Under the pieces are notes generated by a model that saw only the letters and a program-made list of their open reading frames with translations, had not been told where the DNA came from and did not search any database. Shown here in pieces: positions 3,367-26,934 of a DNA stretch of 36,275 bases (position 1 is its first letter; the number at the start of each line of letters is the position of its first letter). The DNA is taken from assembly GCA_030596145.1 (NCBI GenBank), contig JAUVKS010000001.1:1-36275 (forward strand), read 5' to 3'. Origin of the DNA: Pseudomonadota bacterium. Lineage in GTDB: Bacteria > Desulfobacterota > Syntrophia > Syntrophales > JADFWA01. Both the position numbers and the translations under genes were made by a program.

Positions 3367-4076
3367 TTACAGTTTCCCGATGCGGTTTGTTGACGATCTG
3401 TCCTGTTCCGATATAGTATGAATCGCTTTCTGGTACGATTCAAAAGTGCGCTGTATATTGATCATTTCAACCATTTCTTTTATAATCTGGACATTGGAAA
3501 GCTCAAGGTATCCGGATTGGACACGTGCATTTTCTTCCTCTTTTGCGCCCGCTAAATCATCAGGATTACGAAAACCTACGCCTCGTTTAACAAGAGCAGA
3601 CGGTTCGCGAAAGCTCATGATCTTCAATGCATCAACTTCATCGCCATCCACACTTATCACGCCATCTTGGCTTATCCGGATGTTGTTTCCCTCAATTGTA
3701 ATTTTTCCACCTCTACCAAGGAGATAATCTCCGGCCTGTGTAACCAGCTCTCCATCCCCGTTGAGCGTAAACCTTCCATCTCTCGTATAGGCAACGCCGG
3801 CTTTTGTCTGAACAGCAAAAATCCCTTCCCGTCTATTACCAGATCCAGAACATTGCCGGTTTTCTGCATAATTCCCCGGGAATAATCGACAGTTGTTGCC
3901 GGTCCCTGCGCGGGTCTGCCTTCATCCGCCCCCTTTTCGGAGCTTGCCTTTAAAAAATGGAACCGCTCTGCCTTGAAACCGGGAGTGTTAACATTGGCAA
4001 TATTATGCGTGACGCAATTAAGCTGGCTAATCTGCCTTATAGCCGCATTTACCATTATTTCGATACCGTTGATCAT
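3367..4076 (-). pseudogene. flgF: Proximal rod protein FlgF-like, reading frame broken by a 1-nt indel in an A5/T5 run (3817-3821)
   Basis: ORF 3672-4127 gives the N-terminus MINGIEIMVNAAIRQISQLNCVTHNIANVNTPGFK (ATG 4076, GGGAGG SD). ORF 3367-3660 gives the C-terminus LELSNVQIIKEMVEMINIQRTFESYQK. Its frame stays open upstream and reads IFAVQTKAGVAYTRDGRFTLNGDGELVTQAGDYLLGRGGKITIEGNNIRISQDG, typical rod-protein sequence. Confidence 0.8.
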
Positions 4077-4147
4077 CTTTCCTGCCTCCCTTTCCTGCAC
4101 ACAAAAATAAAGCAATTTGTATGCCAAAAGAGCTAAGAGCGTGGAGC

Positions 4148-4323
4148 GGAGGGCAGAAGGGCAGAAGATTAGAGGGTTAGAGGGTTAGAGGGTTAGAGGT
4201 CGGGAGGCAGGCAATTTTGTTTATAACAGGAATTTTTTTCCCATTTGGTTGGCTCTTTTATAAAGGTAGTCGACCAGTTCACGGTTCAAGGTTGCTGGTT
4301 ACTGGTTGTCTAATCTTTTGACC
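4148..4323. repeat. Family C' (AGGGTTAG x3) plus a B-D-C module; spacer upstream of flgF
   Basis: gggcagaagggcagaagattagagggttagagggttagagggttagagg at 4148-4207. cagttcacggttcaaggttgctggttactggttgtctaatc at 4275-4323, containing the stop of ORF 4299-4640. Confidence 0.9.
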
Positions 4324-4640
4324 TTCTGCTCTTCTGCCATCACCTTCTCACCCTCCGGCCCCTGCTCTCTGTACCGTTCATTGAGCGAATAAACAAAGGC
4401 CAATATTTCCGCAACAGCTTTGTAAAGCTCAGGAGGAATCTGTTCATCTATATCAAGCCGGCTCAGGATCTGCGCCAGCGCAGGATCTTCTTTTACAGGC
4501 ACCTTATGTTTTTTTGCGAGTTCTATAATCTTTTCAGCAATGACGCCACTTCCCTTGGCTGTGACCCTCGGCGCCGAATCTCTTTTTCCGTCATATTTTA
4601 GGGCAGCGGCAATTGTTGTCTCTTTTTTGTCTTTGTTCAT
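4299..4640 (-). CDS. Stand-alone FlhB C-terminal-domain homologue (EscU/YscU/FlhB-CC-like; YlqH/FlhX type)
   Basis: AAALKYDGKRDSAPRVTAKGSGVIAEKIIELAKKHKVPVKEDPALAQIL...IPPELYKAVAEILAFVYSL aligns with FlhB in this window (LAVALRYDQTSTSAPKVVAKGAGFIAENIKDIARKNDVPIVNNKPLARVL...IPENLYRAVAEVLAFVYS). It starts just after where NPTH would be. Confidence 0.85.
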   Translation of the reverse strand: MNKDKKETTIAAALKYDGKRDSAPRVTAKGSGVIAEKIIELAKKHKVPVKEDPALAQILSRLDIDEQIPPELYKAVAEILAFVYSLNERYREQGPEGEKVMAEEQKVKRLDNQ

Positions 4641-6813: not shown

Positions 6814-6893
6814 TTAGGGTTCAGGGGGTTCAGGGTTCAGAGGTTCAGGGTTCTCTGATATCTAATCTTCTCACCTTCTCACCCTCTAATCCC
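6814..6893. repeat. Family B (GGTTCAGG) then family C (CTTCTCACC/CTAATC) arrays
   Basis: ttagggttcagggggttcagggttcagaggttcagggttc ... tctaatcttctcaccttctcaccctctaatccc. Confidence 0.9.
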
Positions 6894-6946: not shown

Positions 6947-7045
6947 CGCTTAATTGCGAATTTAGGGATTTAGGGATTTAGGAATTAAAGGTATTCTGTT
7001 GATTTCAATCCCTCAATCCCTCAATCCCCCAATTCCTTAATCCCT
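6947..7045. repeat. Family E hairpin (GGATTTAG array / CCTCAATC array); right arm contains the stop of ORF 7037-7819
   Basis: gcttaattgcgaatttagggatttagggatttaggaatt ... caatccctcaatccctcaatcccccaattcc. The left arm is ~90% identical to the reverse complement of 26838-26871. Confidence 0.9.
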
Positions 7046-7889: not shown

Positions 7890-8393
7890 TTACAATAAAA
7901 CAAACTTAGTAAAATATATTTTTTTAATTATCTCATCATCCAACAAATTATTCAAGCTAATTTTAATTTCTTCTTTTAACCCCCTCCTGATTTCAGGCAA
8001 CTCCGAAGGATGAAAATCCCCCCTTACCCCCCTTTGGTAAAGGGGGGATGGGGGGATTTTTAAAAGCTCTTTCAATGTGTTATATATGATCTTTCTCAAC
8101 TCGATCCTCTTTTGCGGCAGTTTCATCCCTCGATTCAGTTCAATAACCACATCACAAATCAGAAACCTGTCCTTTTTATTATCATCTTTCAAATGAATAA
8201 TGAAGTCATTAAAATATTCAAACCTTTCTTCTGTAGAAAGAGTCTCTTGCGAACTTACTTCACAGAGCTCCTGACTCCTGACCTCCGACCCCGCCAGACT
8301 GACGGGGGGCAAGCTCTGACCTCCGATCTCTGGTCCTTGCCCCCTGACAGACCCGTTGCCTGCAAACAACGCAATGCACAGGCATACGGCCAT
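7890..8393 (-). CDS. FliL-like paralogue carrying two repeat-derived in-frame insertions
   Basis: C-terminus FLICDVVIELNRG...LKEEIKISLNNLLDDEIIKKIYFTKFVLL parallels FliL in this window (...RDEIAVRLNSYLTKGQVRRVYFTEFLIQ). Start chosen at ATG 8393 (MAVCLCIALFAG). The ORF-track start at 8447 adds an unrelated 18-aa fragment. Confidence 0.5.
   Translation of the reverse strand: MAVCLCIALFAGNGSVRGQGPEIGGQSLPPVSLAGSEVRSQELCEVSSQETLSTEERFEYFNDFIIHLKDDNKKDRFLICDVVIELNRGMKLPQKRIELRKIIYNTLKELLKIPPSPLYQRGVRGDFHPSELPEIRRGLKEEIKISLNNLLDDEIIKKIYFTKFVLL
8013..8060. repeat. 48-nt G/C-tract palindrome inserted in frame in the FliL-like CDS
   Basis: aaaatccccccttacccccctttggtaaaggggggatggggggatttt. A ~21-bp stem with one bulge; 16 codons (IPPSPLYQRGVRGDF). 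Confidence 0.9.
8280..8336. repeat. Dispersed GACCTCC/CCGCC-hairpin element inside the FliL-like CDS (copy of 26415-26500)
   Basis: gacctccgaccccgccagactgacggggggcaagctctgacctcc compared with 26415-26459: 43/45 identical. Confidence 0.9.
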
Positions 8394-8470
8394 CAAAACT
8401 CTGTATGCACAACCAATGATTTTCTCAGTCAATTCTCTGTGTTTCACTTATATGCCTTCATGAACTTATG

Positions 8471-8602: not shown

Positions 8603-9325
8603 CTAAGTAATGTCATGTCTGAATTTTTTCAAGCCGACCTTTAGTCTCAGTATTGCCTGGGAGTGGATTTGACAGACTCTTGATTCCGTCAATTTCAAGG
8701 TCAGTCCTATCTCCTTTAATGTTAATTCCTCATAATAATAAAGGGACAGCACCAGTTTTTCTTTTTCAGGGAGTGAATCTATTGCATTCTTCAATATGTT
8801 TTTAAGTTCCCTGTTGGCAAGAAGGAAAAAAGGATTGTTTTGATCAATTTTTTCCAACACATCATGCCTGCCGCATTTTTCACAGTAGCTCTGGGGCAAA
8901 TCATCCTTGCTCAGGATGCGGACACTCCTTGCTTCATCAAGAAGTTTATAATAATTTTTAAGTGATATGCCAAGATAATGCGAAATCTCTTCATCAGTTG
9001 GATGACGTCCGAACTTTTTCCGCAACACCTCAAGCGCATCTTTAATCATTGTTTCTTTGTTTCTAACTGATCTTGGCGCGTCATCTCTTGATCTTAATTC
9101 ATCCAATATGGCCCCCCGGATCCTGAACTGTGCATATGTTTCAAACCGCACCTTCTTAGTTTCGTCAAATTTCTCCAGGGCCGACATCAATCCCATTATG
9201 CCGACGCTGATTAAATCATCTGTGTCCACATGATCGGGGAGTCTCAGGGCAATCCTCCCGACAATATTCTTAACGAGAGGCAAATATTTAATTATCAGTT
9301 TCTCGCGCTCTTTTTTATAAGCCAT
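8603..9325 (-). CDS. fliA: Flagellar sigma factor FliA (sigma-28)
   Basis: 240 aa. Region 2 (VGIMGLMSALEKFD...FETYAQFRIRGAILDELR) and region 4 HTH (LSLYYYEELTLKEIGLTLKLTESRVCQIHSQAILRLK). Lies downstream of flhF-flhG. Confidence 0.9.
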   Translation of the reverse strand: MAYKKEREKLIIKYLPLVKNIVGRIALRLPDHVDTDDLISVGIMGLMSALEKFDETKKVRFETYAQFRIRGAILDELRSRDDAPRSVRNKETMIKDALEVLRKKFGRHPTDEEISHYLGISLKNYYKLLDEARSVRILSKDDLPQSYCEKCGRHDVLEKIDQNNPFFLLANRELKNILKNAIDSLPEKEKLVLSLYYYEELTLKEIGLTLKLTESRVCQIHSQAILRLKVGLKKFRHDIT

Positions 9326-9338
9326 TTTTATATCAGTT

Positions 9339-9500
9339 CAGCCACAAAGGCGCTAAGACACTAAGATTCTAAAATGATTATTTATTTCTTATGCGCAGTA
9401 AAAAGCAATATCTGTAATTTTTTTGGAAATAAATTCTTTCCTTTTATATAAGGTTTTGAAAAACATTCCTTTCCTTTGTGTCTTCGTGTCTTTGTGGCTG
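9339..9500. repeat. Family F inverted repeat (CAGCCACAAAG...) bracketing an AT-rich core; flhG-fliA spacer
   Basis: Arms are cagccacaaaggcgctaagacactaagat (9339-9367) and cctttgtgtcttcgtgtctttgtggctg (9473-9500). The same termini occur at 26755/26887. Confidence 0.85.
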
Positions 9501-9502
9501 GG

Positions 9503-10387
9503 TTATTGCACATTTTTGTTGATGGTGGATCTGCCAAAGAATTTAATGGTCCCGTTTTCGTAATCTTTCGGCTGTTTCAGACACAACTTTGCGATAATTT
9601 TAGACATGCTTTTACTTGCCTTTGAATCAGAGAAAATCTCTGTTAGCAGTTTTTGTTTCCTTACTGCTTTTGAAACATTTTGATCATGAGGGATATATCC
9701 CAAATACTCGATTGGAAGACCAAGGAAATGATTCGTAGCATTGCTCAACCTCGCGTAAACCATCATGGCTTCATTCGAATCCCTTGCCATGTTGACAAGC
9801 AGCATAAAACACCTTGTTTTATAGCTTTGATAAAGTATTTTGATTAAGGCGTAAGCATCCGTCAATGACGTGGGTTCAGGTGAAACAACTACAATAATTT
9901 CTCTCGCTGCCATATTAAAATACATGACATTGTCGCTAATTCCAGCGGCTGTATCGATAAGCATAAAATCGAAGTCTTCATCCAGTCCATCCATCTCCTC
10001 CAGAAGAGTGAACTTTTGCCCTTTTGACAGATCGGCTGTCCCCTGGATTCCTGAAGATGCCGGCAAAATCTTGATGCCTCCCGGACCTTCGACAACAGCC
10101 TCAGAAAGAGTTTTTTCGCCGCTAAGGACGTGGCGCAGATTATATTTTGGAGTAATGCCAAGGATCACATCTATGTTGGCCAACCCTGTATCAGCATCGA
10201 GCAGCAAAATTCTTTTCCCCATCTTCGAAAAAATATATGCGAAGTTTGCAGTTATATTTGTTTTCCCAACCCCCCCTTTGCCGCTGGTAACAGCGATAAC
10301 ACGGGTATTGCTATTATATATTTTCCGTTCAATTGTCTGGGGCATTACATTTTCCTTCATTTCTCTCAACGCTCCTGCCTGATCCAC
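9503..10387 (-). CDS. flhG: MinD/ParA-type ATPase FlhG (FleN/YlxH)
   Basis: Deviant Walker A VTSGKGGVGKT; LLLDADTGLANIDV. Follows flhF. The annotated start is GTG; ATG alternatives at 10360 and 10345. Confidence 0.88.
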   Translation of the reverse strand: MDQAGALREMKENVMPQTIERKIYNSNTRVIAVTSGKGGVGKTNITANFAYIFSKMGKRILLLDADTGLANIDVILGITPKYNLRHVLSGEKTLSEAVVEGPGGIKILPASSGIQGTADLSKGQKFTLLEEMDGLDEDFDFMLIDTAAGISDNVMYFNMAAREIIVVVSPEPTSLTDAYALIKILYQSYKTRCFMLLVNMARDSNEAMMVYARLSNATNHFLGLPIEYLGYIPHDQNVSKAVRKQKLLTEIFSDSKASKSMSKIIAKLCLKQPKDYENGTIKFFGRSTINKNVQ

Positions 10388-10456
10388 CTAAACTACCTCC
10401 ATAGGGACAAATCCCCTTTTTCTCAGTCTCTCAACTTCTGTTCTCTGACCTTATAA

Positions 10457-10604
10457 GGATTCAGAAGATTAGAAGGTTAGAAGGTAAGAGCTCCATAACC
10501 TTCTCACCTTCTGCTCTTCTAACCTTCTGCTCTTTTAACCCTCTCAACTTCTAACCTTCTAACCTTCTAACCTTCTAACCTTCTAACCTTCTAACCTTCT
10601 AACC
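10457..10604. repeat. Family C hairpin ending in 7 perfect TTCTAACC units (10549-10604)
   Basis: The left arm ggattcagaagattagaaggttagaaggtaagag pairs with AACCTTCT-type units. The 7x perfect octamer array contains the flhF stop codon (TAG, 10591-10593). Confidence 0.95.
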
Positions 10605-11826
10605 TCCCGCCGACTATCAGCCTTGCAAGTTTTGCAGGATCCATTTTATTTAAATCATGTGGAACATTCTGACCATCGGCAATGTAGAACACCGGTTTGC
10701 CGACATGGTCAATAACATTATAAATCGAGCCGAATTTTTTTGAATCATCCAGCTTCGTAAATATAATGTTGTTATAATTTACAATACCAAATCTCGCCAC
10801 AGCATCCATCATGCTCTCCTGACTTGATGTCATGCTTAAAACAAGATTCGTTTCCAGTGGAAGACCCATCGTAAAATATTCCTTTAATTTCGATAAATAA
10901 ACTTCATCACCACGACTCTTTCCAGGCGTATCTATCAGTATGATATCTTTATCGGCAAACTTATTCAAAGCTCTCTCTAATGCCTTCTTTTCAGAAGCAA
11001 CTTCCATGGGGACATCCATGATATCCGCGTATCTTTTCAGTTGTTCCACCGCGCCTATCCGATATGTATCCATTGTTATGATACCTACATTTAATTTATC
11101 TTCGAATAAACAGCGTGCCGCCAGCTTTGCCAGGGTTGTTGTTTTCCCATCACCCGTGGGGCCCACAAAGAGAGAAATCCTCTTTTTCCCCGTATTCCCG
11201 CCAGTATTTCTATAAGAAGAAGCAATAGATCCTTTTATAATGTTCTCAACAGCAGCCAGAGTATAATGATGGTTCTCCGGATCTTCCATCGAGCTATCGT
11301 TCTTCAACTCCTCTATTAATGCGCAGGCACGTTGTTTTGATACGCCTACCGAAATCAGGTGATAATAAACCTTTGACAGAGAAGAAGAAACTCTTCCATT
11401 ATTTTGAATGCCAAGAACATCAAATAAAAGACCCATTGTCTCCTTTATCTCAGTCAGCTCGGCATAAATGCCCCCTTGCTTTTTGAAATCCATAATAAAG
11501 GACTTCAACTCATTAACATCCGATCTAATTATGGAGAATGTATCTGATTCCTCTTTTTCGCATTTTTGAAGCTCCCCGCAGCTTGCTGCGGGGAAGCTTC
11601 GACCGTAAGGAAGTTTGCTATTTTCAGATTCGCTCGTTTTTGCTCGCTTTTGCGGTTCAACTTTACTTTCTTTTAGAATTTCATAATTATCATCCCTGGC
11701 AGCAATCACCTCAATCCTGCCATTCAGCCTTCTGCTGGAAAGCACTATGGCGTCCGGGCCCATATCCGCCTTTATCTTCTGCATAGCCTCGCTTATACTC
11801 AAGGCATCATATCTTTTAATCTGCAT
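10591..11826 (-). CDS. flhF: SRP-type GTPase FlhF
   Basis: N-terminus MQIKRYDALSISEAMQKIKADMGPDAIVLS; G1 GPTGDGKTTT; DTPG. Overlaps the flhA end by 11 nt. The stop codon lies inside the TTCTAACC tandem array. Confidence 0.9.
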   Translation of the reverse strand: MQIKRYDALSISEAMQKIKADMGPDAIVLSSRRLNGRIEVIAARDDNYEILKESKVEPQKRAKTSESENSKLPYGRSFPAASCGELQKCEKEESDTFSIIRSDVNELKSFIMDFKKQGGIYAELTEIKETMGLLFDVLGIQNNGRVSSSLSKVYYHLISVGVSKQRACALIEELKNDSSMEDPENHHYTLAAVENIIKGSIASSYRNTGGNTGKKRISLFVGPTGDGKTTTLAKLAARCLFEDKLNVGIITMDTYRIGAVEQLKRYADIMDVPMEVASEKKALERALNKFADKDIILIDTPGKSRGDEVYLSKLKEYFTMGLPLETNLVLSMTSSQESMMDAVARFGIVNYNNIIFTKLDDSKKFGSIYNVIDHVGKPVFYIADGQNVPHDLNKMDPAKLARLIVGGRLEG

Positions 11827-13900
11827 CTTTTGCCGCCAGCATACCCAGAGATTTGATATTTACATCACTAATGATTTCGTTGTGGGAAAGAACAGCGATA
11901 TTGGGAAAAAACTTTTCCAGTATCTTGCTTAAATATCCCCTGATATTGGGCGAGCAGAGAATAACCGGCGGCAAGCCTTTGTCGCTAAAAATTTTGATAA
12001 ACTTCTTGAGGTTGCCTACAACCTCTTGTATCAGAGTGGGGTCAGCCGCAACAAATGATTCATATTCCGTATGCTGAACCGATTTATTAATTCTGTCCTC
12101 AATATCAGGAGAAACCATAATAACTGTTATGTTCCCATCCGCGTCCTTATATTCCTTTGTTATCATCCTGGCCAGCGCCTGTCTTACATACCCGGTTAAC
12201 GTGTCAACATTTTTTGTCAGAGGCGCATAATCGGCTAATGTTTCCAGTATCGTAAGAAGATCGCGAATAGAAATTCTCTCCTTCAAAAGCCTCTGCAGTA
12301 CTTTCTGAAGCATGCCGAGCGGAACGATATTTGGAATAAGCTCCTCTATAACTTTGGGATGGCTCACTGCCAGACTATCCAGCAAAGACTGAACATCCTG
12401 CCTGCCCAACAGTTCATCTGCATGCGTTTTTATAATTTCAGTCAAATGGGTCGTAATAACGGCTGCCGGATCAACAACAACAAAACCCTTTGCTTGAACC
12501 GATTCTTTTTCTTTTTCATCTATCCAGACCGCAGGCAGGCCGAAAGCAGGTTCCTTTGCCTCAATTCCCGTTATCTTTGCGCCTTCATTTCCAGCAGTTA
12601 TTGCCAGATAATGACCCATCTGTATTTCTCCCTTAGCTATCTCAACTCCTTTCAGTTTAACAACATATTCACCGGGCTTTACCTGCAGATTGTCTCTTAT
12701 ATGTATGGCAGGCGTGACAAAGCCCATTTCAACGGCTATCTGCCTTTTCAGCGCCTTGATTCTCTCAAGCAATTCACCGCCCTCTCCTGCATCAACGAGG
12801 GGCACCAGGCTGTATCCTATCTCAAGTTCAAGGGCATCAAGGGGCAGGAGAGCTTCTATGGGCTCCTCCACCGGTTCCGGCGGCGGCTTCTCCTCCATAT
12901 CTTCAACTTTCTGTGATGATTTAAATGTCCTGTATGCAATAATTCCCGAAATAAGAGCAATGGCTAAAAAAGATATCTTGGGCATGCCGGGAATTAAACC
13001 AAATATCAACAGGATAACTGAAGCCGCTGCAATCACCTTTGGTTTGGCAAAGAGTTGTCCTCCTACTTCCTTACCCAAATCAGATGAGCCTGTAGACCTG
13101 GAGATAAGCATGCCTGCGGCAGTTGATACAATCAGCGCCGGAATCTGCGTTACCAGCCCATCACCCACTGTAAGAAGAGTATAGACGCGAGCGGCATCCG
13201 CTACCGACATACCCTGCTGCAGCACGCCGACAATCAAACCGCCCAAAATATTTATCGTGGCAATAATAATCCCCGCGATTGCATCCCCCCTGACGAACTT
13301 GCTCGCCCCGTCCATTGCGCCGTAAAAATTTGATTCCAGCTCAATTTCACGCCGCCTTCTTCTCGCCTCTGCATCTGTAATCAGCCCTGCATTAAGATCT
13401 GCGTCGATGCTCATCTGTTTTCCGGGCATCGCATCCAGGGTGAATCTTGCCGCCACTTCGGCTATTCTTGTGGCGCCCTTGGTTATCACAATAAAATTAA
13501 TAAGGACAAGCACCAGAAATACTATAAATCCAACCACATAATTGCCGCCGACAACAAAGGAGCCGAATGCCTTGATGACCTGCCCGGCCGCCCCCGGGCC
13601 CTCATTGCCATGGAGAAGTATAAGACGCGTGGAAGCTACATTAAGGGACAAACGAAGCAAAGTTATAATTAAAAGGATGGATGGAAAAACGGAAAAATCG
13701 ATAGGTTTTTGCACATAAACTGAAACCAGCAGTATAATCAGAGAAAAACTGATACTGAAAGAAAGGAGCATATCGAGAGCAAAGGGGTGCAGAGGTATCA
13801 TCATAACCAGAAGGATACCTGCTATCCCTATGGCCATCGCGGTATTGCCGCCTTTAAACAAATCGAAAAAATTGCCGGTTTTAACGTAAGGATCAGCCAT
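11816..13900 (-). CDS. flhA: Export gate protein FlhA
   Basis: 694 aa. N-terminal polytopic TM domain, then the conserved FVRGDAIAGIIIATINILGG block and a large cytoplasmic C-terminal domain. Confidence 0.95.
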   Translation of the reverse strand: MADPYVKTGNFFDLFKGGNTAMAIGIAGILLVMMIPLHPFALDMLLSFSISFSLIILLVSVYVQKPIDFSVFPSILLIITLLRLSLNVASTRLILLHGNEGPGAAGQVIKAFGSFVVGGNYVVGFIVFLVLVLINFIVITKGATRIAEVAARFTLDAMPGKQMSIDADLNAGLITDAEARRRRREIELESNFYGAMDGASKFVRGDAIAGIIIATINILGGLIVGVLQQGMSVADAARVYTLLTVGDGLVTQIPALIVSTAAGMLISRSTGSSDLGKEVGGQLFAKPKVIAAASVILLIFGLIPGMPKISFLAIALISGIIAYRTFKSSQKVEDMEEKPPPEPVEEPIEALLPLDALELEIGYSLVPLVDAGEGGELLERIKALKRQIAVEMGFVTPAIHIRDNLQVKPGEYVVKLKGVEIAKGEIQMGHYLAITAGNEGAKITGIEAKEPAFGLPAVWIDEKEKESVQAKGFVVVDPAAVITTHLTEIIKTHADELLGRQDVQSLLDSLAVSHPKVIEELIPNIVPLGMLQKVLQRLLKERISIRDLLTILETLADYAPLTKNVDTLTGYVRQALARMITKEYKDADGNITVIMVSPDIEDRINKSVQHTEYESFVAADPTLIQEVVGNLKKFIKIFSDKGLPPVILCSPNIRGYLSKILEKFFPNIAVLSHNEIISDVNIKSLGMLAAKDAD

Positions 13901-14140
13901 TGCTCGTTACTCGTTGCTGGTTACTGGTTGCTCGTTACTGGTTGCGAATTACTCGTTGCTGGTTGCTCGTTGCTCGTTCCGAAAAGGAAATAGGAAAGAG
14001 TTAAGAGAAAAGGGTGTTACTCTATTCTCTAATCCTCTGACCTTTTAATCTTCTGACCTTCTAACCTTCTAACCTCCGACCTCCGACCTCCGACCTCCTT
14101 ACTCGACCACTTGACTATTTCCCCACTCGACCATTCCCCT
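13901..14140. repeat. Composite spacer: family D heptamers, element J, family C (incl. GACCTCC x3), family A
   Basis: tgctcgttactcgttgctggttactggttgctcgttactggttgc..., then the J element, then ctgaccttctaaccttctaacctccgacctccgacctccgacctcc, then ttactcgaccacttgactatttccccactcgacc. Confidence 0.95.
13972..14030. repeat. Dispersed element J, copy 1 (59 nt, 57/59 identical to 29491-29549), upstream of flhA
   Basis: gctcgttccgaaaaggaaataggaaagagttaagagaaaagggtgttactctattctct. Confidence 0.95.
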
Positions 14141-15191
14141 TGCTGTAAACGAATGCCAGTACTTCAGCAACCGCCCTGTACAAATTTTCCGGTATCATCT
14201 CATCCACATCCACATTCTTATACAATACTCGTGCCAGCGGCTTGTTGTTAACGATGGGCACATCGTTTTTCCTTGCAATATCTTTTATATTCTCAGCTAT
14301 GAAACCAGCCCCTTTAGCAACCACCTTCGGCGCAGATGTGCTTGTCTGATCATAGCGAAGCGCCACGGCAAGATGGGTGGGGTTGGTTATAACCACATCC
14401 GCTTCCGGAACGCTTGCCATCATTCTCTTTCTGGCCATATCTCTCTGGAGATGTTTTATCCTTGCCTTTACAAGAGGATCTCCTTCTGTCTGTTTGGATT
14501 CGTCCTTCACCTCCTGCTTTGACATTTTAAGATTTTTTTCAAATTCCCACTTCTGATAAATATAATCGAAAACTGCAAGGATTATAAGCGCCAAACAAAC
14601 TCTGAGAATAATCTTGAATGCAACCCCTCCAATGCAAATCAATATTCCCCATACACTCTGGTCCATCAGCGGAATAAAATTCTCTATTTCCCCCTTGATA
14701 GTTATATAAACAACGAAACCGATTAGCGAAATCTTAAATATATTCTTTGCCAGTTCCACAAGGCCTCTGATGGAAAACAGCTTCTGAAATCCCTTGATCG
14801 GATCAATCTTTGAGAATTTCGGCTGCACCGATTCTGAGGAAAGCACAAAACCAATCTGAACGTAATTGGCAAGCAAAGCCATGAAAAAAGCAGACAAAAA
14901 AAGAGGCAAAAGCATGGCGAAAATCTTATACACAATGCCGCTTGAAAGACTCTGGATATTATTGTAATCAACATTGAATTGGCCGGACTGGGTGAGCGAC
15001 CACCTTGTAAGAGCCATCATCCTTTCGACTATAGCGTAAGAACCAAACCAGAAGCATGCCAGACAGGCTAACAAAACCGCCACAGATGCAACTTCCCTGC
15101 TTTTTGCAACCTGACCCTTCTTCCTCGCCTTTTCCCGCTTCTTAGGAGTAGCTCGCTCGGTCTTTTCCTGATCTTTATTTTCTTCAGCCAT
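14115..15191 (-). CDS. flhB: Export switch protein FlhB
   Basis: 358 aa. N-terminus EKTERATPKKREKARKKGQVAKSREV, four TM segments, NPTH autocleavage motif (VVITNPTHLAVALRYD). The last codons and the stop lie in a family-A repeat. Confidence 0.95.
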   Translation of the reverse strand: MAEENKDQEKTERATPKKREKARKKGQVAKSREVASVAVLLACLACFWFGSYAIVERMMALTRWSLTQSGQFNVDYNNIQSLSSGIVYKIFAMLLPLFLSAFFMALLANYVQIGFVLSSESVQPKFSKIDPIKGFQKLFSIRGLVELAKNIFKISLIGFVVYITIKGEIENFIPLMDQSVWGILICIGGVAFKIILRVCLALIILAVFDYIYQKWEFEKNLKMSKQEVKDESKQTEGDPLVKARIKHLQRDMARKRMMASVPEADVVITNPTHLAVALRYDQTSTSAPKVVAKGAGFIAENIKDIARKNDVPIVNNKPLARVLYKNVDVDEMIPENLYRAVAEVLAFVYSKGNGRVGK

Positions 15192-15203
15192 ATTTCATAA
15201 AAG

Positions 15204-15325
15204 CTCAAGGTTCACGGTTCAAGGTTCACGGTTCAACGGTTCAACGGTTACTGGTTCTCTAATCTTCTAACCTTCTAATCTTCTAACCTTCTCACCTTCT
15301 TACCTTCACTACTCGACCATTCCCT
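15204..15325. repeat. Composite spacer with B, D-fragment, C, A module order (fliR-flhB)
   Basis: ctcaaggttcacggttcaaggttcacggttcaacggttcaacggttactggttctctaatcttctaaccttctaatcttctaaccttctcaccttcttaccttcactactcgaccattccc. Confidence 0.95.
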
Positions 15326-15346
15326 GACACCTGCGTCAAAAAACCA

Positions 15347-16108
15347 TCACATTAAATGGAGAAGCAGGTTCAGCTTGTCTCCAAGATCCAGAAAAATACT
15401 GCCCACCATTCTTGCGAAAACAGGAAGGGCAAGTCCGATACATATAAGCCCCACTGCTATTTTCACAGGAAACCCAACGATAAGTATATTAATCTGGGGA
15501 ACGGTCCTGGCAATCAATCCAAATCCGATGCTTATCATCAAAAGCATGGCGATAACCGGAGCGCCTGTCTTAATTGCAACGACAAACATATCTTTTGAAA
15601 GCTCAATGATTGCCTGCGTTAATTCTCCTGAAAAATGAAAGCTAAGGGCAGGAACAATCCTATAACTTTCCGCGATAGCGTATAAAAAGAGATGGTGGCC
15701 ATCAACAGCAAGAAATACCAGCATGGCAAGCAGATATTGAAATTGGGCTATAATTGAAACCTGCGCGCTGGTTATGGGATCAAACACATTTACAATGGCA
15801 AAACCCATTTGAAAGCCTGCAAGCTGCCCTGCTAATTGCACCCCGGCAAAGACCAGTCTGCCCGCCAAACCTATAGTGACGCCAATCATAACCTCCCCGG
15901 CCATTCTCAACGCTAACGGCAGGATATCAGGAGACGAGATATGGAGTTTAATAAATGGGAAAAGCAGAAATACTATCATCAGAGACAGCCCCCCTTTTAC
16001 CCTGACAGGAACAGTCCTGTTCCCTAAAATAGGCATTGTTACTACTATCGAGCTCACCCTGAGGAGCACAAAAATAAACGTCTCAATCTGCTGTGCTGTT
16101 ATTTGCAC
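15347..16108 (-). CDS. fliR: Export apparatus protein FliR
   Basis: 253-aa polytopic membrane protein after fliQ, with FliR-like segments (LRVSSIVVTMPILG..., GFQMGFAIVNVFDP). GTG start as annotated. Confidence 0.88.
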   Translation of the reverse strand: MQITAQQIETFIFVLLRVSSIVVTMPILGNRTVPVRVKGGLSLMIVFLLFPFIKLHISSPDILPLALRMAGEVMIGVTIGLAGRLVFAGVQLAGQLAGFQMGFAIVNVFDPITSAQVSIIAQFQYLLAMLVFLAVDGHHLFLYAIAESYRIVPALSFHFSGELTQAIIELSKDMFVVAIKTGAPVIAMLLMISIGFGLIARTVPQINILIVGFPVKIAVGLICIGLALPVFARMVGSIFLDLGDKLNLLLHLM

Positions 16109-16189
16109 CTTCTCACCCTCTAATCTTTCTCACCTTCTAATCTTCTCACCCTTTCAGTCTCTCAACCCTGAACCCTGAACCCTGAACCT
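16109..16189. repeat. Family C then B' arrays (fliQ-fliR spacer)
   Basis: cttctcaccctctaatctttctcaccttctaatcttctcaccc...caaccctgaaccctgaaccctgaacc. Confidence 0.9.
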
Positions 16190-16190
16190 T

Positions 16191-16460
16191 TCATCTTATA
16201 TACATCGGTATGGCTTGAAAGAGCTCCCTGGTATAAGTAACCATAAGGTTGATCATCCATGGAAGCGCAACGATGAGGGCCACCATGACCGCAACTATTT
16301 TAGGAACAAATGTCAATGTCATTTCCTGAATCTGAGTTACAGCCTGAAAGATGCTTACGACGAGGCCTACAGCAAGGCCCACCGTGAGCATTGGGGCTGC
16401 AAGCAGCAAGGTAACCTTTATGGCTTCAGCCGCCATTCCAATAATCAGATCAATAGTCAT
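16191..16460 (-). CDS. fliQ: Export apparatus protein FliQ
   Basis: 89 aa with two TM segments; SIFQAVTQIQEMTLTFVPKI motif. Confidence 0.92.
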   Translation of the reverse strand: MTIDLIIGMAAEAIKVTLLLAAPMLTVGLAVGLVVSIFQAVTQIQEMTLTFVPKIVAVMVALIVALPWMINLMVTYTRELFQAIPMYIR

Positions 16461-16471
16461 GCGCTACCTCT

Positions 16472-16640
16472 TTTAACAGGGTTCAAAGGTTCAAAGGTTC
16501 AGGGTTCAGGGTTGCTCGTTACTGGTTGCTGTCTAATCTTCTGACTTCTGACTTCTGACCTCCCTACTCGACCACTCGACCCGTCCGCCATCGGCTTCGC
16601 CTCAGGCGAATGCCGGGCGGGCCATTTCCCCACTCGACTA
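16472..16640. repeat. Composite spacer with B, D, C, A order plus a GC-rich imperfect palindrome (16580-16621)
   Basis: agggttcaaaggttcaaaggttcagggttcagggttgctcgttactggttgctgtctaatcttctgacttctgacttctgacctccctactcgaccactcgac; cccgtccgccatcggcttcgcctcaggcgaatgccgggcggg; ccatttccccactcgac. Confidence 0.95.
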
Positions 16641-16642
16641 AT

Positions 16643-17413
16643 TTAAGCAAAGCTTTGAACCAGCGAACCGATTATTAAATTCCACCCGTCAACCAGCACA
16701 AAAAGGAGTAGTTTGAACGGCAGGCTTATCATTATAGGCGGAAGCATCATCATTCCCATTGATAAAAGCACACTGGCAATGACCATATCCAGTATCAAAA
16801 AAGGGAGATAGATCATAAACCCGATTTGAAAAGCCGTCTTTAATTCACTGATTACAAAGGCGGGTATTAATACGGGAAGTTTGATCTCATCAGGTTTTTG
16901 GGGCCTTTCCCCCCTTGAAATTTTGACAAAGAGGGCAATATCTTTTTCTCCAGCCTGCTTTAACATAAATTCTTTTATGGGCTGCGCTGCCAGGTCAAAT
17001 GCTTTTTCAGCCGATATCTCTTCATTTATATACGGCTGCAACGCCTGAGAATTTACCTTATTCCAGACAGGGGTCATGATAAAAAAGGTCAGGAAGAGGG
17101 ATAATCCAATGATAATCTGGTTTGCAGGCATCTGCTGCGTACCCAGAGCATGCCTTAGAAGGGAAAGGACGACAACAATTCGAGTAAACGAAGTCAACAT
17201 TACAAGTATTGCGGGAGCAAGAGAAAGTATTGTAAAAAGAAACAACAGTTGCAGAACTACCGCTACCCTGCCTGGTTCATCACCGCCGTCCCCAGCATTC
17301 AAACTTATCGAGGGAATGGAAAATGATTGCCCCCACGAAGAGCCTGCAAAAAAAATGAGTCCAAAAACTACCAGGATGCATATAAGACATTTCCCGAATC
17401 TTGATGGTCTCAT
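16643..17413 (-). CDS. fliP: Export apparatus protein FliP
   Basis: Signal-like N-terminus, then SLAPAILVMLTSFTRIVVVLSLLRHALGTQQMPANQIIIGLSLFLTFFIMTPV. The ORF-track start at 17425 is TTG; ATG at 17413 preferred. Confidence 0.93.
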   Translation of the reverse strand: MRPSRFGKCLICILVVFGLIFFAGSSWGQSFSIPSISLNAGDGGDEPGRVAVVLQLLFLFTILSLAPAILVMLTSFTRIVVVLSLLRHALGTQQMPANQIIIGLSLFLTFFIMTPVWNKVNSQALQPYINEEISAEKAFDLAAQPIKEFMLKQAGEKDIALFVKISRGERPQKPDEIKLPVLIPAFVISELKTAFQIGFMIYLPFLILDMVIASVLLSMGMMMLPPIMISLPFKLLLFVLVDGWNLIIGSLVQSFA

Positions 17414-17526: not shown

Positions 17527-17610
17527 AATGATGTCGCTCCGCTCCTCAAATTATGTTTGGTTCAGGGATATTTGGTTGCTGTTTTTACGACCTCCGACTT
17601 CTGGCCTCTG

Positions 17611-17707
17611 TTCCTTCATCTTTTCCCATTCAACATTCGATGTTGGACGTTCGATCTGGCTTCGCAAATGCTATGCCAAGACACGTGTTCGATGTTCATT
17701 TTTTTCA
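17611..17707. repeat. Dispersed element I, copy 1 (fliO-fliP spacer)
   Basis: ttccttcatcttttcccattcaacattcga[tgttggacgttcga]tctggcttcgcaaatgctatgccaagacacgtgttcgatgttcattttttt. Near-identical to 20341-20437 except for the position of a 14-nt module. Confidence 0.95.
17663..17678 (-). promoter_or_regulatory. Sigma-54 promoter candidate inside dispersed element I (copy 1), upstream of fliP
   Basis: Minus strand reads TGGCAT-AGCAT-TTGCG. Predicted +1 (~17652) coincides with one arm of a 16-bp perfect inverted repeat (17636-17651 / 17489-17504). Confidence 0.5.
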
Positions 17708-19501: not shown

Positions 19502-19517
19502 CTAAGTTGTCTCCTTA

Positions 19518-19611
19518 AAGGTTCAATGTTCAAGGTTCAGGGTTCAGGGTTCAGGGTTCAGGGTTCAGGGTTCAGTTTAACCTTGAACCTTGAACCTTTG
19601 AACCGTGAACG
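19518..19611. repeat. Family B hairpin (GGTTCAGG x5 facing an AACCTTG array), fliL-fliM spacer
   Basis: aaaggttcaatgttcaaggttcagggttcagggttcagggttcagggttcagggttcag ttt aaccttgaaccttgaacctttgaaccgtgaacg. Confidence 0.95.
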
Positions 19612-19612
19612 C

Positions 19613-20126: not shown

Positions 20127-20336
20127 TGGTCGAGTGGTCAAGTAGTCAAGTAGTCGAGTGGTCATTGCGAGAAGTCCGCCGCAGGCGGATGGATTATCAA
20201 CATGTTTTGAGATTGCTTCGCTTCGCTCGCAATGACAATGCTGGGGTTTTTCAAATGTCTCGAATAACCAATCATCCATTTCCCCACTCGACCACTCAAC
20301 CATTTTCCTACTCGACTACTTCCCCACTCGACTATT
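20127..20336. repeat. Composite palindromic element: family A array, GTCATTGCGAG...CTCGCAATGAC palindrome, family A' array
   Basis: Forward A units at 20127-20163. An 11-bp perfect inverted repeat at 20161-20171 / 20225-20235 encloses tccgccgcaggcgga. Reverse A units at 20277-20336. Confidence 0.9.
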
Positions 20337-20340
20337 TCTG

Positions 20341-20437
20341 TTTCTTCATGTTTTCCCATTCAACATTCGATCTGGCTTCGCAAATGCTATGCCAAGACAC
20401 GTGTTGGACGTTCGGTGTTCGATGTTCATTTTTTTAA
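20341..20437. repeat. Dispersed element I, copy 2 (motB-fliL spacer; overlaps the motB stop)
   Basis: tttcttcatgttttcccattcaacattcgatctggcttcgcaaatgctatgccaagacacgtgt[tggacgttcggtgt]tcgatgttcattttttt. Confidence 0.95.
20379..20394 (-). promoter_or_regulatory. Sigma-54 promoter candidate inside dispersed element I (copy 2), upstream of fliL
   Basis: Minus strand reads TGGCAT-AGCAT-TTGCG. Identical to the site at 17663-17678. Confidence 0.5.
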
Positions 20438-22754: not shown

Positions 22755-22770
22755 AGCAAAGAATGTGCCA
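22755..22770 (-). promoter_or_regulatory. Sigma-54 promoter candidate abutting the motA start
   Basis: Minus strand reads TGGCAC-ATTCT-TTGCT, a perfect match to core consensus. The predicted +1 (~22744) would leave only ~6 nt before the motA ATG at 22738. Confidence 0.45.
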
Positions 22771-23072
22771 GAAGGATTGGGGGTTAGAGTGTGAGAAGGT
22801 TAGAAGGGAAGAGGGTGAGAAGGTAGGAAGGTAAGAGGGTAGGAAGAGCAGAAGGGAAGAGGGTGATAGGATTAGGGGATTAGAAGGTTAGAGGGGAAGA
22901 GGGTGAGAAGTTTTGTTTTTGAGTTCTTTACTAACCTTCTAACCTTCTGATCTTCTAACTTTCTGTTTTTGACGGGTCGTCAGAAATTTGACACATAACT
23001 ACTCAGATTGTCAGGTTCACAGTTCTCTAACCTTGAACCTTGAACCGTGAACCCTTGAACCGTGAACCTAAG
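22771..23072. repeat. Long purine-rich family C' tract (~145 nt), short C arm, then family B' units (flgE-motA spacer)
   Basis: gaaggattgggggttagagtgtgagaaggttagaagggaagagggtgagaaggtaggaagg... facing taaccttctaaccttctgatcttctaac. Then aaccttgaaccttgaaccgtgaacccttgaaccgtgaacc. Confidence 0.9.
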
Positions 23073-25281: not shown

Positions 25282-26715
25282 TTACGCAAACAAACTGACA
25301 CGCCCGTCACTCCGGACGCTTGGGTTTTCTTCCTTAAACGATGAGGGGTCATGATTCAAGGAATCTTGTTCCCCCCCATGGTCTTCTTCGTTCCCTTCCC
25401 GATTTCTGCCTTCTCTAAATAATGTCTCATTCCGCCCGGAGCCGTAATTGCCGCCGTCCGGTTTTTCCTGAACAGATACATTTATGGTATCCGCGACCAA
25501 TCCATGATTGCGAAGAGAGCTTTTGAGACTTTCCACATTTGACTGTAATATCTGCCTGACATCATTATTTTCCGTCTGCAGGATAACATGCACTTTATTA
25601 TCCCTGACAAGCACATCCACATCCAGCGTGCCCAGACGGGGCGGGTTGAGCGTGATTCTTACCCTTCCTGGCTTCTTTACGCTGTTTGCAATCTGATTGA
25701 TCAAAGCCCGTGGTTCTACGTCGTAACTGTTCACGCTCTCATTGATGACTGCCGACCCGCTATCTGCATGAAAAGCGGTATGCTGATATCCCCCGGCAGA
25801 AAAATCCCTGTAAGATGGACGCTCCGGTGGTGAAGTCCCTCTATGAAGAATCCCCATAGCCTCTTCACCCTTAAGAGCCAAAGGTTTCAGTGAATTTCCG
25901 ATGCCATTTTTGCCGCCGCTGTCCGGCTCTACACTGCTCTTTGCTTTTACAACAACCGCATTCTTCAAACTGAACTTCAAAAGCCCCTGTTTCTCCTCCA
26001 TCTTTGCCTTCCGGCCATTGCCTTCTGTCCTATGGCCCCCGCCAGACTGACGGCGGTCAGGTCTGAGCAGGGCGTTGTTTATTCCGGCAATGTTCTTTCC
26101 ATTCTTAAAGAGAGCTGCATCGGTCTTTCCATTCATGATACCTGAGTCTAACGCCCGTTTCCCGAACGGGCCGATGAGGGCATCGGCCCCTACACGTACC
26201 TGAGCCTCATTCTTTCCGACAACCGCTTTAGCTTCACCCTTAAGAGCCAAAGGTTTCAGTGAATTTCCGATGCCATTTTTGCCGCCGCTGTCCGGCTCTA
26301 CACTGCTCTTTGCTTTTACAACAACCGCATTCTTCAAACTGAACTTCAAAAGTCCCGGAGCATCCACCATCTCTGCCCTCCCACCGGGGCGTAGGCCCCT
26401 ATGGGCCGGAGGCTGACCTCCGACCCCGCCAGACTGACGGCGGGCAAGCTCTGACCTCTGACCTCTGACCTCCGACCTCTGACCTCCGACCTCTGGTCCC
26501 CGGCCTTTCACAGGTAGCGATTGATTCGTTTTTTCCGTCTCTTGTGTCGTTATGCGGCATATCTGCCCCATCATACAAAAAAACGGCATCATCTGCTCCG
26601 GTTCCTTACCTGTCTGCCGTCGCACAGGCAGGCCGGTCTTCCTTTCCTGCAATTTTTCAGATGAGCCCAGAAGGCCGATGCCCTGTTTTAGATTCACCAG
26701 ATTAGACTCTATCAT
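25282..26715 (-). CDS. fliK: Hook-length control protein FliK (repeat-rich N-terminal/ruler half)
   Basis: C-terminal Flg_hook-type domain (RVRITLNPPRLGTLDVDVLVRDNKVHVILQTENNDVRQILQSNVESLKSSLRNHGL). Sits between ylxF-like and flgD. The N-terminal start is uncertain. Confidence 0.8.
   Translation of the reverse strand: MIESNLVNLKQGIGLLGSSEKLQERKTGLPVRRQTGKEPEQMMPFFCMMGQICRITTQETEKTNQSLPVKGRGPEVGGQRSEVRGQRSELARRQSGGVGGQPPAHRGLRPGGRAEMVDAPGLLKFSLKNAVVVKAKSSVEPDSGGKNGIGNSLKPLALKGEAKAVVGKNEAQVRVGADALIGPFGKRALDSGIMNGKTDAALFKNGKNIAGINNALLRPDRRQSGGGHRTEGNGRKAKMEEKQGLLKFSLKNAVVVKAKSSVEPDSGGKNGIGNSLKPLALKGEEAMGILHRGTSPPERPSYRDFSAGGYQHTAFHADSGSAVINESVNSYDVEPRALINQIANSVKKPGRVRITLNPPRLGTLDVDVLVRDNKVHVILQTENNDVRQILQSNVESLKSSLRNHGLVADTINVSVQEKPDGGNYGSGRNETLFREGRNREGNEEDHGGEQDSLNHDPSSFKEENPSVRSDGRVSLFA
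25863..25983. repeat. 121-bp perfect direct repeat inside fliK, copy 1
   Basis: cttcacccttaagagccaaaggtttcagtgaatttccgatgcc...caaactgaacttcaaaag is identical to 26232-26352. The offset is 369 nt, i.e. 123 codons. Confidence 0.95.
26232..26352. repeat. 121-bp perfect direct repeat inside fliK, copy 2
   Basis: Base-for-base identical to 25863-25983. Encodes GLLKFSLKNAVVVKAKSSVEPDSGGKNGIGNSLKPLALKGE twice. Confidence 0.95.
26415..26500. repeat. Dispersed GACCTCC/CCGCC-hairpin element with an expanded GACCTCT heptamer run, inside fliK
   Basis: gacctccgaccccgccagactgacggcgggcaagctctgacctctgacctctgacctccgacctctgacctccgacctctggtcc. A partial third copy lies at 26036-26068. Confidence 0.9.
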
Positions 26716-26918: not shown

Positions 26919-26934
26919 AGCAAAAGACGTACCA
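26919..26934 (-). promoter_or_regulatory. Sigma-54 promoter candidate upstream of fliK
   Basis: Minus strand reads TGGTAC-GTCTT-TTGCT. About 200 nt upstream of the fliK ATG, with the nested hairpin 26755-26887 in the predicted leader. Confidence 0.5.

Follow-up and report, generated by a model that had tools for sequence, protein, structure and literature searches.

The DNA analyzed here, referred to as the window, is a stretch of 36,275 nt (positions 1 to 36,275 of contig JAUVKS010000001.1, assembly GCA_030596145.1) that the list of open reading frames (ORFs) and Pfam identify as a single flagellar gene cluster with all genes on the minus strand. A sigma54 activator is followed by flgBC, fliEFGHI(J), fliK, flgDE, motAB(B), fliLMNOPQR and flhBA and then by flhF/flhG/fliA; at the far end, after fliA, ORFs and Pfam place flgFG, flgA and flgH. 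Our subject is the intergenic DNA of this cluster, above all the spacers at 13901-16640, which are built of short tandem arrays. An initial annotation had suggested that these spacers hold a composite element, in which repeat families A, C, D and B stand in fixed order ahead of a Shine-Dalgarno (SD) sequence and the ATG of the next gene. Pfam identifies FliP and FliQ around the spacer at 16461-16642. The nearest FlhB proteins come from metagenome-assembled genomes (MAGs) of uncultured Desulfobacterales, Thermodesulfobacteriota or 'Deltaproteobacteria'; those that are 98-100% identical are carried on contigs of ~1.2 kb that terminate within repeats, and no record was found for the exact FlhB or FliQ protein of the window. 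Relatives and other loci are labelled L001-L130 below.

Tandem Repeats Finder returned 106 rows for the window, nearly all with a period of 7, 8 or multiples of these, and arrays of 7-8-nt units occupy 44.6% of intergenic bases (4.9 kb intergenic DNA) versus 1.15% of coding bases. In the sense of the mRNA, the unit of family A+ is GGTCGAGT, that of B+ is GGTTCAG (B-, CYTGAACC) and that of D is SAGYAAC. Family C+ has the units AGAAGGTT, AGAAGATT and AGAAGGTG in addition to the 7-mers GGTCAGA and GGTCGGA, and is abbreviated as AGAAGNTT/GGTCAGA where the order is summarized; A-, B- and C- denote the reverse complements of A+, B+ and C+. The minor families are AAAGCTC (F), GGGATTGA, CGAACRT and CACAAAGA. 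Units of A, B, C and D contain GG at most, and runs of three G are confined to the GGGATTGA family, which the unit listing of Tandem Repeats Finder places near 7005-7030 and 26823-26857.

Eight spacers hold two or more oriented modules (A+, C+, D or B-), and in all eight the modules are colinear with A, C, D, B, an outcome with a probability of ~3e-7 if the order were independent and random (product of 1/k!). The fixed order that had been read from the sequence is thus borne out: every spacer named as an example reads as described, and two more were found (29428-29590 and 6818-6890). The one departure from strict order among the eight is a tandem C-D duplication in 32900-33121. Module content is combinatorial (ACD, ACDB, CDB, CB, DB), and all 25 D units of the window have the same orientation.

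Three of these composites lie in the region of the initial annotation; here and below, coordinates refer to the minus strand and modules are given in mRNA sense. The fliP-fliQ spacer (16461-16642) carries the full composite, with an A unit at 16626-16642, A+ at 16565-16582, C+ at 16532-16564, D at 16511-16531 and B- at 16477-16510, followed by the SD and start context (16461-16476). Its A+ array is split by a GC-rich hairpin insert at 16583-16625 (CCCGCCCGGCATTCGCC-TGA-GGCGAAGCCGATGGCGGACGGG), and similar GC-rich hairpin inserts are present in the flhB-flhA spacer of L126. The fliR-flhB spacer (15192-15346) also reads A-C-D-B, with A+ at 15309-15324, C+ at 15258-15308, a single D unit GAACCAGTAAC at 15247-15257, B- at 15205-15246 and an AU-rich tail at 15192-15204. 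Directly after the fliR stop, at 15325-15346, stands a small hairpin, TTTTTTGACGCAnGyGTCA followed by GGGAATGGTC, that is kept in all relatives; it has the same position in L002, L004, L005 and L127-L130 despite turnover of the adjoining arrays, and the arrays of this spacer begin at its GGTC. The flhB-flhA spacer (13901-14132, within the cited range 13901-14140) reads A-C-J-D. Here, A+ (14099-14132) overlaps the flhB stop (14115-14117), C+ occupies 14028-14098, a unique linker J (repeat family D14) occupies 13976-14027, and the D array (13901-13975) adjoins the flhA ATG.

Five further composites are spread across the cluster. The fliE-fliF spacer (32900-33121) reads C-D-C-D-B, with C+ at 33060-33121, D at 33035-33059, C+ at 33000-33034, D at 32972-32999, B- at 32915-32971 and the SD at 32900-32914. 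A sigma54-type promoter at 34466-34481 shortly precedes C+ (34425-34455), D (34411-34424) and B- (34379-34410), which make up the 5' untranslated region (5'UTR) of flgB. The fliH-fliI spacer (29428-29590) begins with an AAAGCTC-type F+ array (29566-29590) and a C-like array (29542-29565), and continues with a copy of linker J (29495-29541), D (29481-29494) and B- (29452-29480). At 4277-4352, C+ (4309-4352) and D (4291-4308) precede B- (4277-4290); the C+ and D modules fall in the 3' end of the ORF at 4299-4640, whose stop codon TAA lies within a CAGTAAC unit. Finally, the spacer at 6818-6890 joins C+ (6862-6890) to B- (6818-6850) through a linker, TATCAGAGAA, at 6851-6861.

The composite is not the only type of spacer, which qualifies the initial reading. 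About 13 spacers have a second architecture, in which an array is followed by its own reverse complement to give a hairpin (for example 19502-19612 and 33440-33563). Within 13901-16640, the sole spacer that departs from A-C-D-B is that between fliQ and fliR (16109-16190; z -0.38 in the folding analysis described below), in which B+ (GGTTCAG x3, 16164-16190) precedes a C+ array (16109-16163) that extends to the GTG start.

Boundaries between modules are conserved as well. A 33-nt C-D junction is present in three copies with at most two mismatches, versus 0.00 expected; this recurrence had been noticed before, and its exact starts are 16510, 32978 and 33038, so that the earlier positions ~32971 and ~33031 were wrong by several bases. 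The copies at 32978 and 33038 are not independent, because both lie in one 60-nt tandem duplication of C-D (32974-33094, period 60, 2 copies, 83%). Across composite spacers runs a shared core, GATTAGA-SARC-CAGTAAC: C arrays end with GATTAGA in most composite copies, yet GATTAGA makes up only about one fifth of C units. The sequence GATTAGASARC occurs four times in the window versus 0.03 expected, and all nine of its copies in ~1 Mb of fetched DNA stand between a C array and D or B arrays. Linker J, a unique 52-nt sequence, is common to the flhB-flhA and fliH-fliI spacers, 15.5 kb apart; with flanking units, the similarity extends over 70 nt at 96% identity, and the J 54-mer in fliH-fliI has no mismatch at specified bases and one difference at a wildcard position. 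The junction AGATTAGA-TATCAGAGAACC of 6851-6890 (C-TATCAGAGAAC) is repeated in the non-orthologous flhB-flhA spacer of L002. Conserved junctions between modules, for which the initial annotation had proposed a test, are present in the form of the 33-nt junction, the GATTAGASARC core and linker J.

Whole blocks also come and go. A scan of a metagenome collection for the exact 22-nt C-D junction gave one match, in a close relative (L123) that has a C-D-B block of 103-108 nt where the window has none. Around the block, ~150 nt of 5' coding sequence are identical between the two, and the 3' non-coding sequence is alignable and diverged. The block stands 24 nt before the stop of an MgtE_N-like gene (27021-27617 in the window), and the TAG within its GATTAGA provides a new stop. 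A C-D-B block is thus present or absent as a unit between close relatives. Stop codons supplied by arrays are also seen at 10591, 14115, 34591, 4299 and ~700 of L123, where arrays reach into the 3' ends of ORFs and provide TAG from GATTAGA or GGTTAGA, or TAA from CAGTAAC; the C-terminal tails of the proteins are therefore rewritten through array gain.

Single units are gained and lost as well. For one related species, three independent assemblies (L001-L003) differ by eight mismatches in 21 kb, and in their non-coding DNA by one 7-nt (ATCCCTG)n unit, one 8-nt (CTAATCCT)n unit and nothing else. In the fliR-flhB spacer of L125 (flhB 98.5% identical), C and B units are fewer, with both junctions and the tail unchanged. 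Slippage is clearly at work, and in the short term it is the principal kind of change. At greater distance, in relatives with 82-88% FlhB identity, orthologous spacers keep C-D-B or A-C-D and range from 2 to 233 nt in length. Between flhB and flhA, the window has A-C-J-D, L002 has C-linker-D-B, both L004 and L126 have A-C-D, and the spacer of L005 and L129 measures 2 nt; C-D-B is retained between fliR and flhB in L125 and L127; and the fliQ-fliR spacer of L129 is 42 nt long with about one unit per module.

These comparisons also bear on whether the arrays could be an artefact of sequencing, or of assembling a metagenome bin rich in repeats. Short-read assemblies do break at the arrays; as a practical effect, the contigs available for the closest strains are gene-sized. 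Nevertheless, the flanking arrays of L124 (flhB 99.7% identical), an independent assembly, match those of the window base for base to the end of its contig, the three assemblies L001-L003 agree save for single-unit indels, and the same architecture is found in at least eight other genomes. We consider the chance of an artefact to be next to negligible.

The order of modules is partly an instance of a more general polarity rule. In mRNA sense, GC skew is higher in the 5' half of 21 of the 26 window spacers (p = 0.0025) and of 43 of 55 spacers in eight relatives (p = 3e-5). Inverted pairs of D-type arrays in other genomes have the G-rich arm first in every case (20:0; 14:0 by a stricter count), and among A-type and B-type inverted pairs of the window none is reversed to C-rich first; such a G-rich-first pair reads identically on either strand. 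Across many phyla, D arrays are followed within 30 nt by the start of a long ORF in 34 of 121 cases in sense versus 4 of 121 in the antisense control. The arrangement is that of Rehm et al., 2015 (PMC4692102), with G-rich repeats after the stop and C-rich repeats before the start on the sense strand, and the same G-rich-5'/C-rich-3' polarity is reported there for the G-rich heptamers of Xanthomonas and Nostoc. That A and C precede D and B is partly explained in this way. The sub-orders within one compositional class are not: in the window, A precedes C in 3 of 3 cases and D precedes B in 7 of 7, and because these sub-orders and the verbatim junctions exceed the polarity rule, common descent is needed.

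Could each spacer instead have acquired its arrays by independent slippage from chance seeds, with the order imposed only by a compositional filter that puts G-rich arrays first and C-rich arrays last? Slippage is directly observed, the polarity rule is general enough to cover the hairpin spacers too, and arrays begin at conserved seeds such as the GGGAATGGTC that follows the fliR hairpin in every relative. Such a process, however, leaves unaccounted for the near-verbatim 33-nt junctions, the 70-nt linker similarity, the excess of GATTAGASARC and the block indel, and it does not explain the A-C and D-B sub-orders. Independent slippage without common descent of blocks is contradicted by the junctions, linker J, the core and the block indel; these, together with the recurrence of C-D in other genomes, mean that it cannot explain the order, and we judge it very improbable. 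The initial preference for a composite over slippage was supported by the non-random order, the shared junctions and the presence or absence of a whole block, and too exclusive in that slippage is also active and both processes operate.

The same modules are also found in other genomes. In a collection of species-representative genomes, more than 117 stretches (a lower bound) contain the D 18-mer CAACCAGTAACGAGCAAC, versus ~17 estimated by chance, with Thermodesulfobacteriota, Bacteroidota, Acidobacteriota, Chloroflexota and others among the matches listed. Where C-like purine arrays accompany D, in Desulfobacterota and Bacteroidota, they lie upstream at eight loci and downstream at none. A clear C-then-D order is seen beside non-flagellar genes in L046, L029, L084, L119 and L032, and also in a 5'UTR and in protein-coding loops: C-then-D is in frame in a receiver-domain loop (L088) and in linkers of polyketide or polyunsaturated fatty acid (PUFA) synthases (L027, L111, L032), and a D-type array is in frame within the adenylation domain of a nonribosomal peptide synthetase (NRPS; L102). 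The in-frame D arrays translate as (Q/E)QP(A/V)TSN.

These observations, and the block indel above, bring to mind a discrete non-autonomous mobile element of the kind of miniature inverted-repeat transposable elements (MITEs), BOX elements or REPINs, in which an enzyme whose gene lies elsewhere in the genome would mobilize a full A-C-D-B unit, which would insert in a single orientation into transcribed DNA and then decay or expand by slippage. The presence or absence of a whole C-D-B block between close relatives would be expected of such an element, as would the common junction core across spacers and genomes, the in-frame arrays in receiver, synthase and adenylation domains, and the distribution of the families across phyla; contigs of the closest strains also stop within arrays, as they do at dispersed repeats. 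The hallmarks of transposition that were looked for were, however, not found. The L123 block has no terminal inverted repeats (TIRs) or other inverted ends, and the only repeat at its borders is a trivial AAC (3 nt), so that neither the TIRs nor the target-site duplication of a MITE is present at the single indel seen; the target-site duplications that the initial annotation proposed to look for thus did not materialize. Nor was its full-length master copy found, and ends and module content are variable. No transposase-like gene appears among the 30 of 39 window ORFs scanned with Pfam (36 kb of the genome) or in precomputed Pfam annotations of the relatives' flagellar loci, and the scan of the metagenome collection matched the exact 22-nt junction a single time. 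We regard a mobile element of this kind as distinctly unlikely. Only a little less doubtful is a variant in which the A/F-C-D-B composite would be a very small, orientation-specific insertion element that inserts as a block and has spread horizontally, itself or through the machinery that writes it, among phyla that share sediments (Desulfobacterota, Bacteroidota, Acidobacteriota and Chloroflexota). It would target operon spacers, 5'UTRs and protein loops by a transcription- or RNA-coupled route, without classical transposon ends.

Two other elements were noticed in spacers of the window. At ~20170-20260, a palindromic MITE-like element (GTCATTGCGAGCGAAGCGAAGCAATC ... GCAATGAC) sits as an insertion between A+ and A- arrays, with related copies at L002 2755, L049 and L064, one of these genomes being a Chitinophagaceae MAG. 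CGAACRT arrays form the arms of long hairpins in the fliO-fliP and motB-fliL spacers; within both of these, at 17607-17697 and 20337-20413, lies a dispersed non-array segment, seen as adjacent matches of 35 and 51 nt that are each 94% identical, and a related piece is present at 20212-20280 of L002.

The composites do not appear to act as structured RNA. When every spacer of at least 60 nt was folded and compared with dinucleotide shuffles, the ~13 hairpin spacers gave z-scores of -4 to -8.5, and the composites at 13901, 15192, 16461, 29428 and 32900 gave -1.0 to +1.1 (+0.17 for 16461-16642). In a second run, composites gave -0.03 (16461-16642), +0.74 and, for a 139-nt sub-stretch of 15192-15346, -2.2; this sub-stretch allows weak periodic AAGGUU/AACCUU pairing between C+ and B-. 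Because the composite spacers otherwise fold no better than shuffles, we reject the composite as a structured RNA, and the covariation that had been suggested as a test has nothing to act on. Rfam 15 gave no match at gathering score over the whole window, the sole match in 13800-16750 at E <= 1 was a chance snoRNA (E = 0.27), and no tRNA or tmRNA was found in a scan of the window.

Signals for transcription lie elsewhere in the cluster. A scan of 13800-16750 for sigma70-type promoters and intrinsic terminators found none within the spacers, and counts over this region did not clearly exceed those of shuffles (promoter-like, 7 versus 3.8 +/- 1.9; terminator-like, 3 versus 3.1). Four sigma54-type promoters (TGGYAY-N5-TTGCW) are seen on the minus strand at 34466-34481, 26919-26934, 22755-22770 and 4111-4126, where they precede flgB, fliK, motA and flgF and divide the cluster into several sigma54-dependent units; the site near motA is kept in relatives. 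Given sigma54-type sites elsewhere and no sigma70-type promoter or terminator within them, the spacers of 13800-16750 most likely lie inside a polycistronic transcript. From the positions of the promoters, the called ORF starts of motA (22759) and flgF (4127) are probably too far upstream.

Of the 12 most C-over-G 78-nt windows of the mRNA strand, ten are array regions. The two extremes, C40/G1 (22779-22856) and C39/G6 (4130-4207), are each followed directly by a sigma54-type promoter and so fall at the end of a transcription unit. Rho loads onto C-rich, G-poor, unstructured RNA, and both of these regions look like candidate Rho loading sites that end the preceding operons. As to whether CA-rich arrays hold start sites open, mean opening energies are 7.8 kcal/mol for native sequences, 11.7 for sequences with reverse-complemented arrays upstream and 8.3 for shuffled upstream arrays. 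The idea that the purine arrays are generally SD-like was rejected, since SD-like 9-mers make up 5.5% of intergenic and 5.3% of coding sequence; only the GGAGGTC variant binds strongly to an assumed canonical anti-SD.

It is also possible that the arrays constitute a cis-regulatory code, in which they would serve as multivalent RNA or DNA binding platforms for global regulators (CsrA-type GGA binders, ribosomal protein S1, cold-shock proteins, Rho or IHF/HU), their order would be a selected grammar and their length would tune the expression of each cistron. The strict orientation to genes and nearness to start codons fit this idea, as do the conservation of order in orthologous spacers while the sequence turns over, the GGA and SD-like motifs of some C units (GGAGGTC) and the peak of array density in the flagellar cluster. 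Regulator binding has been proposed for TAACTGA repeats (PMC4679880) and for the class 1-3 sites of Geobacter (PMC2700814), and a Nostoc preprint describes reporter effects of heptamer repeats (10.1101/2022.06.06.494920). On the other hand, near-identical strains differ in copy number, SD-like 9-mers are hardly enriched in spacers, the same blocks occur inside coding regions, where a grammar would be senseless, and no candidate binding protein was identified. In the sense that orthologous spacers may be 2 nt long, the arrays are dispensable for flagellar gene expression as such. Taken together, we view a regulatory code as rather unlikely, though the least so of the alternatives.

Array density itself is uneven. 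The window has ~13 arrays per 8 kb, compared with mostly 0-4 and at most 7 in other array-bearing genomes (L006-L122), so the flagellar cluster seems unusually array-rich. In L127 (1-8730 versus 8731-14724), five spacers among housekeeping genes that directly adjoin the flagellar genes are without arrays. Arrays with a 7-nt period are seen within coding DNA in fliK (26449-26495, CTCTGAC x6.7) and in the ORF at 7890-8447 (8278-8348); fliK also has an internal direct repeat of 176 nt with 88% identity (25863-26407).

The reading that we favor, with slightly better than even confidence, is that these spacers carry a lineage-wide, modular form of the intergenic heptamer/octamer repeats known as short tandemly repeated repetitive (STRR) sequences, inherited in blocks, varied by slippage and kept in orientation by selection on the transcript. 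Most simply, the spacers would derive from one small dispersed sequence in which each successive segment was amplified. In our proposal, this sequence resides in flagellar operon spacers of a clade of uncultured Desulfobacterales-like bacteria, and its segments would be, in order, an optional GGTCGAGT or AAAGCTC; AGAAG-type purine units ending in GATTAGA; SARC-(C)AGTAAC; and CYTGAAC. Array length shifts one unit at a time through slipped-strand mispairing, as seen between strains, and blocks of several modules with their junctions are tandemly duplicated, recur in non-orthologous spacers and appear or disappear as units, as seen at 32974-33094, in linker J and in L123. The order is the same everywhere because blocks that span modules move together with their junctions.

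How the blocks move between spacers can be suggested in outline. We propose copying from spacer to spacer by gene conversion or template switching, driven by homology or microhomology among the numerous arrays that resemble one another, rather than by a dedicated transposase; these processes are inferred, because no copying event was caught with both its donor and its recipient. Selection on the transcript may then fix the orientation, with G-rich or purine-rich arrays first and C/A-rich, G-poor, unstructured arrays beside the next start. More speculatively, exposed C-rich, G-poor RNA could act as a Rho loading site and hence be selected against inside operons. It might be tolerated where it can pair with an earlier G-rich arm, where it lies beside an initiating ribosome or where the transcription unit ends, and CA-rich arrays beside start codons could serve as structure-free leaders.

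Several observations weigh against this proposal, beginning with the missing donor-recipient pair. The composite spacers themselves expose C-rich RNA, and by individual spacer (n=9) the native opening energy is lower than the flipped in 6 of 9 and lower than the shuffled in 4 of 9. D before B is not universal elsewhere, where B-then-D is found at two loci (L068 by a strict detector, L033 by eye) and D-then-B at one. The density of arrays in the flagellar cluster, far above that among the neighboring housekeeping genes of a relative, is not what purely neutral spreading predicts. Identical units and a C-then-D order in distant phyla are beyond the reach of copying within a genome, so that horizontal transfer or a shared molecular preference is needed in addition, and the in-frame insertion of C-D into protein loops looks more like active insertion than gene conversion.

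A few features of the locus stand apart from the arrays. In the window, flgF (3367-4127, minus strand) is apparently split by a frameshift, with the N-terminal rod domain at 3672-4127 and the C-terminal domain at 3367-3660 in a different frame; in relatives it is a single gene of 237 aa, and the split may reflect a pseudogene or a sequencing error. In L001-L003, a PF05635 gene (23S rRNA intervening-sequence/four-helix-bundle; 349-791) that the window lacks lies between flgD and flgE. An element of ~230 nt, likewise not in the window, flanks fliP in opposite orientation in L130 (7436-7730 and 8460-8692), with a related copy upstream of fliQ in L127 (8285-8730).

Intergenic tandem repeats of 7-8 nt have been reported since ~1990 in cyanobacteria, and later in Xanthomonas, Beggiatoaceae, Bacteroidetes and Geobacter; we know of no agreed function or origin for them. 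The arrays described here are a richer, modular variant of these known intergenic heptamer repeats and not a new kind of element. As in that class, units of 5-11 nt are arranged head to tail, prefer non-coding DNA and vary in copy number by whole units between close strains. They resemble the long simple sequence repeats (SSRs) of 5-11 nt in bacteria (Mrazek et al., 2007, as summarized in PMC4679880) and the STRR heptamers of cyanobacteria in their head-to-tail 7-8-nt arrays, intergenic location, sporadic occurrence among phyla and slippage. In contrast to the published SSR and STRR units, at least five families are combined here in a spacer, in fixed order and with conserved junctions, and fill nearly half of the intergenic DNA of the cluster.

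Among individual systems, the G-rich heptamers GGGAATC of Xanthomonas and GGGGA(T/C)T of Nostoc (Rehm et al., 2015; PMC4692102) share with the window arrays the preference for gaps between co-oriented ORFs, inverted pairs, length variation among close relatives and polarity. They differ in being single-family repeats discussed as G-quadruplex formers, for which no ordered multi-family composite is described; the A-D units, with GG at most, lack the runs of three to four G of a G-quadruplex unit. TAACTGA heptamers of marine Beggiatoaceae, cyanobacteria and Bacteroidetes (MacGregor, 2015; PMC4679880) are similar in their sense arrays directly before start codons, patchy spread across phyla and presence within ORFs; they often stand where no SD sequence is visible, and their distribution suggests horizontal spread. 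Unlike the arrays here, they are a single family with another unit, mostly in 2-6 copies, with no composite order described.

Closer in phylum are the multicopy tandem sites of Geobacter metallireducens, classes 1-3 (GTTGCTYN, TCTCCGTS[Y] and MTYCTGA; Aklujkar et al., 2009; PMC2700814). According to that report, the sites have 3-5 units each, occur as opposite-strand pairs in intergenic DNA, even within an operon (proB-proA), and are interpreted as binding sites of IHF/HU or a global regulator; a fixed order between classes is not reported there. Judged from the published consensus sequences only, the reverse complement of D, GTTRCTS (period 7), resembles class 1 (period 8), and that of the 7-nt C unit, CTTCTGA, fits class 3. 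Opposite-strand pairs of D are absent from the window, where all D units point one way, and 20 D-/D+ pairs were found in other genomes. No tandem dimer of TAACTGA, CCCCAGT, TTGGTCA, CAACAGT, GGGAATC or GGGGATT occurs in the window.

In its logic, the composite is similar to mosaic elements. BOX of Streptococcus pneumoniae (boxA-boxB(n)-boxC) and the bacterial interspersed mosaic elements (BIMEs) of Escherichia coli have a fixed module order with an internal module that varies in copy number, and exist as many dispersed copies at intergenic positions within transcripts; their modules are unique 30-60-nt sequences that fold into stable stem-loops. The composite shares the fixed module order and variable copy number and differs in that each of its modules is a 7-8-nt array and stable stem-loops are lacking. 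No palindrome of the repetitive extragenic palindrome (REP) type and no RAYT gene was seen. In the literature searched, we found no description of this arrangement in Desulfobacterales, nor of a multi-family composite in fixed order, of gain, loss or duplication of such blocks, or of operon spacers so nearly saturated with repeats.

Importantly, this locus shows that families of intergenic heptamer repeats are not independent of one another: they travel together, in a fixed order and with conserved junctions, and blocks of several families are gained, lost and duplicated as wholes. The strand rule by which G-rich arrays come first and C-rich arrays last is without exception for inverted pairs and extends to families that are not complementary to each other. 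Joint travel, block events and the strand rule narrow the possible explanations for these repeats, and in Geobacter metallireducens there is a cultured relative for which arrays of similar unit consensus are reported.

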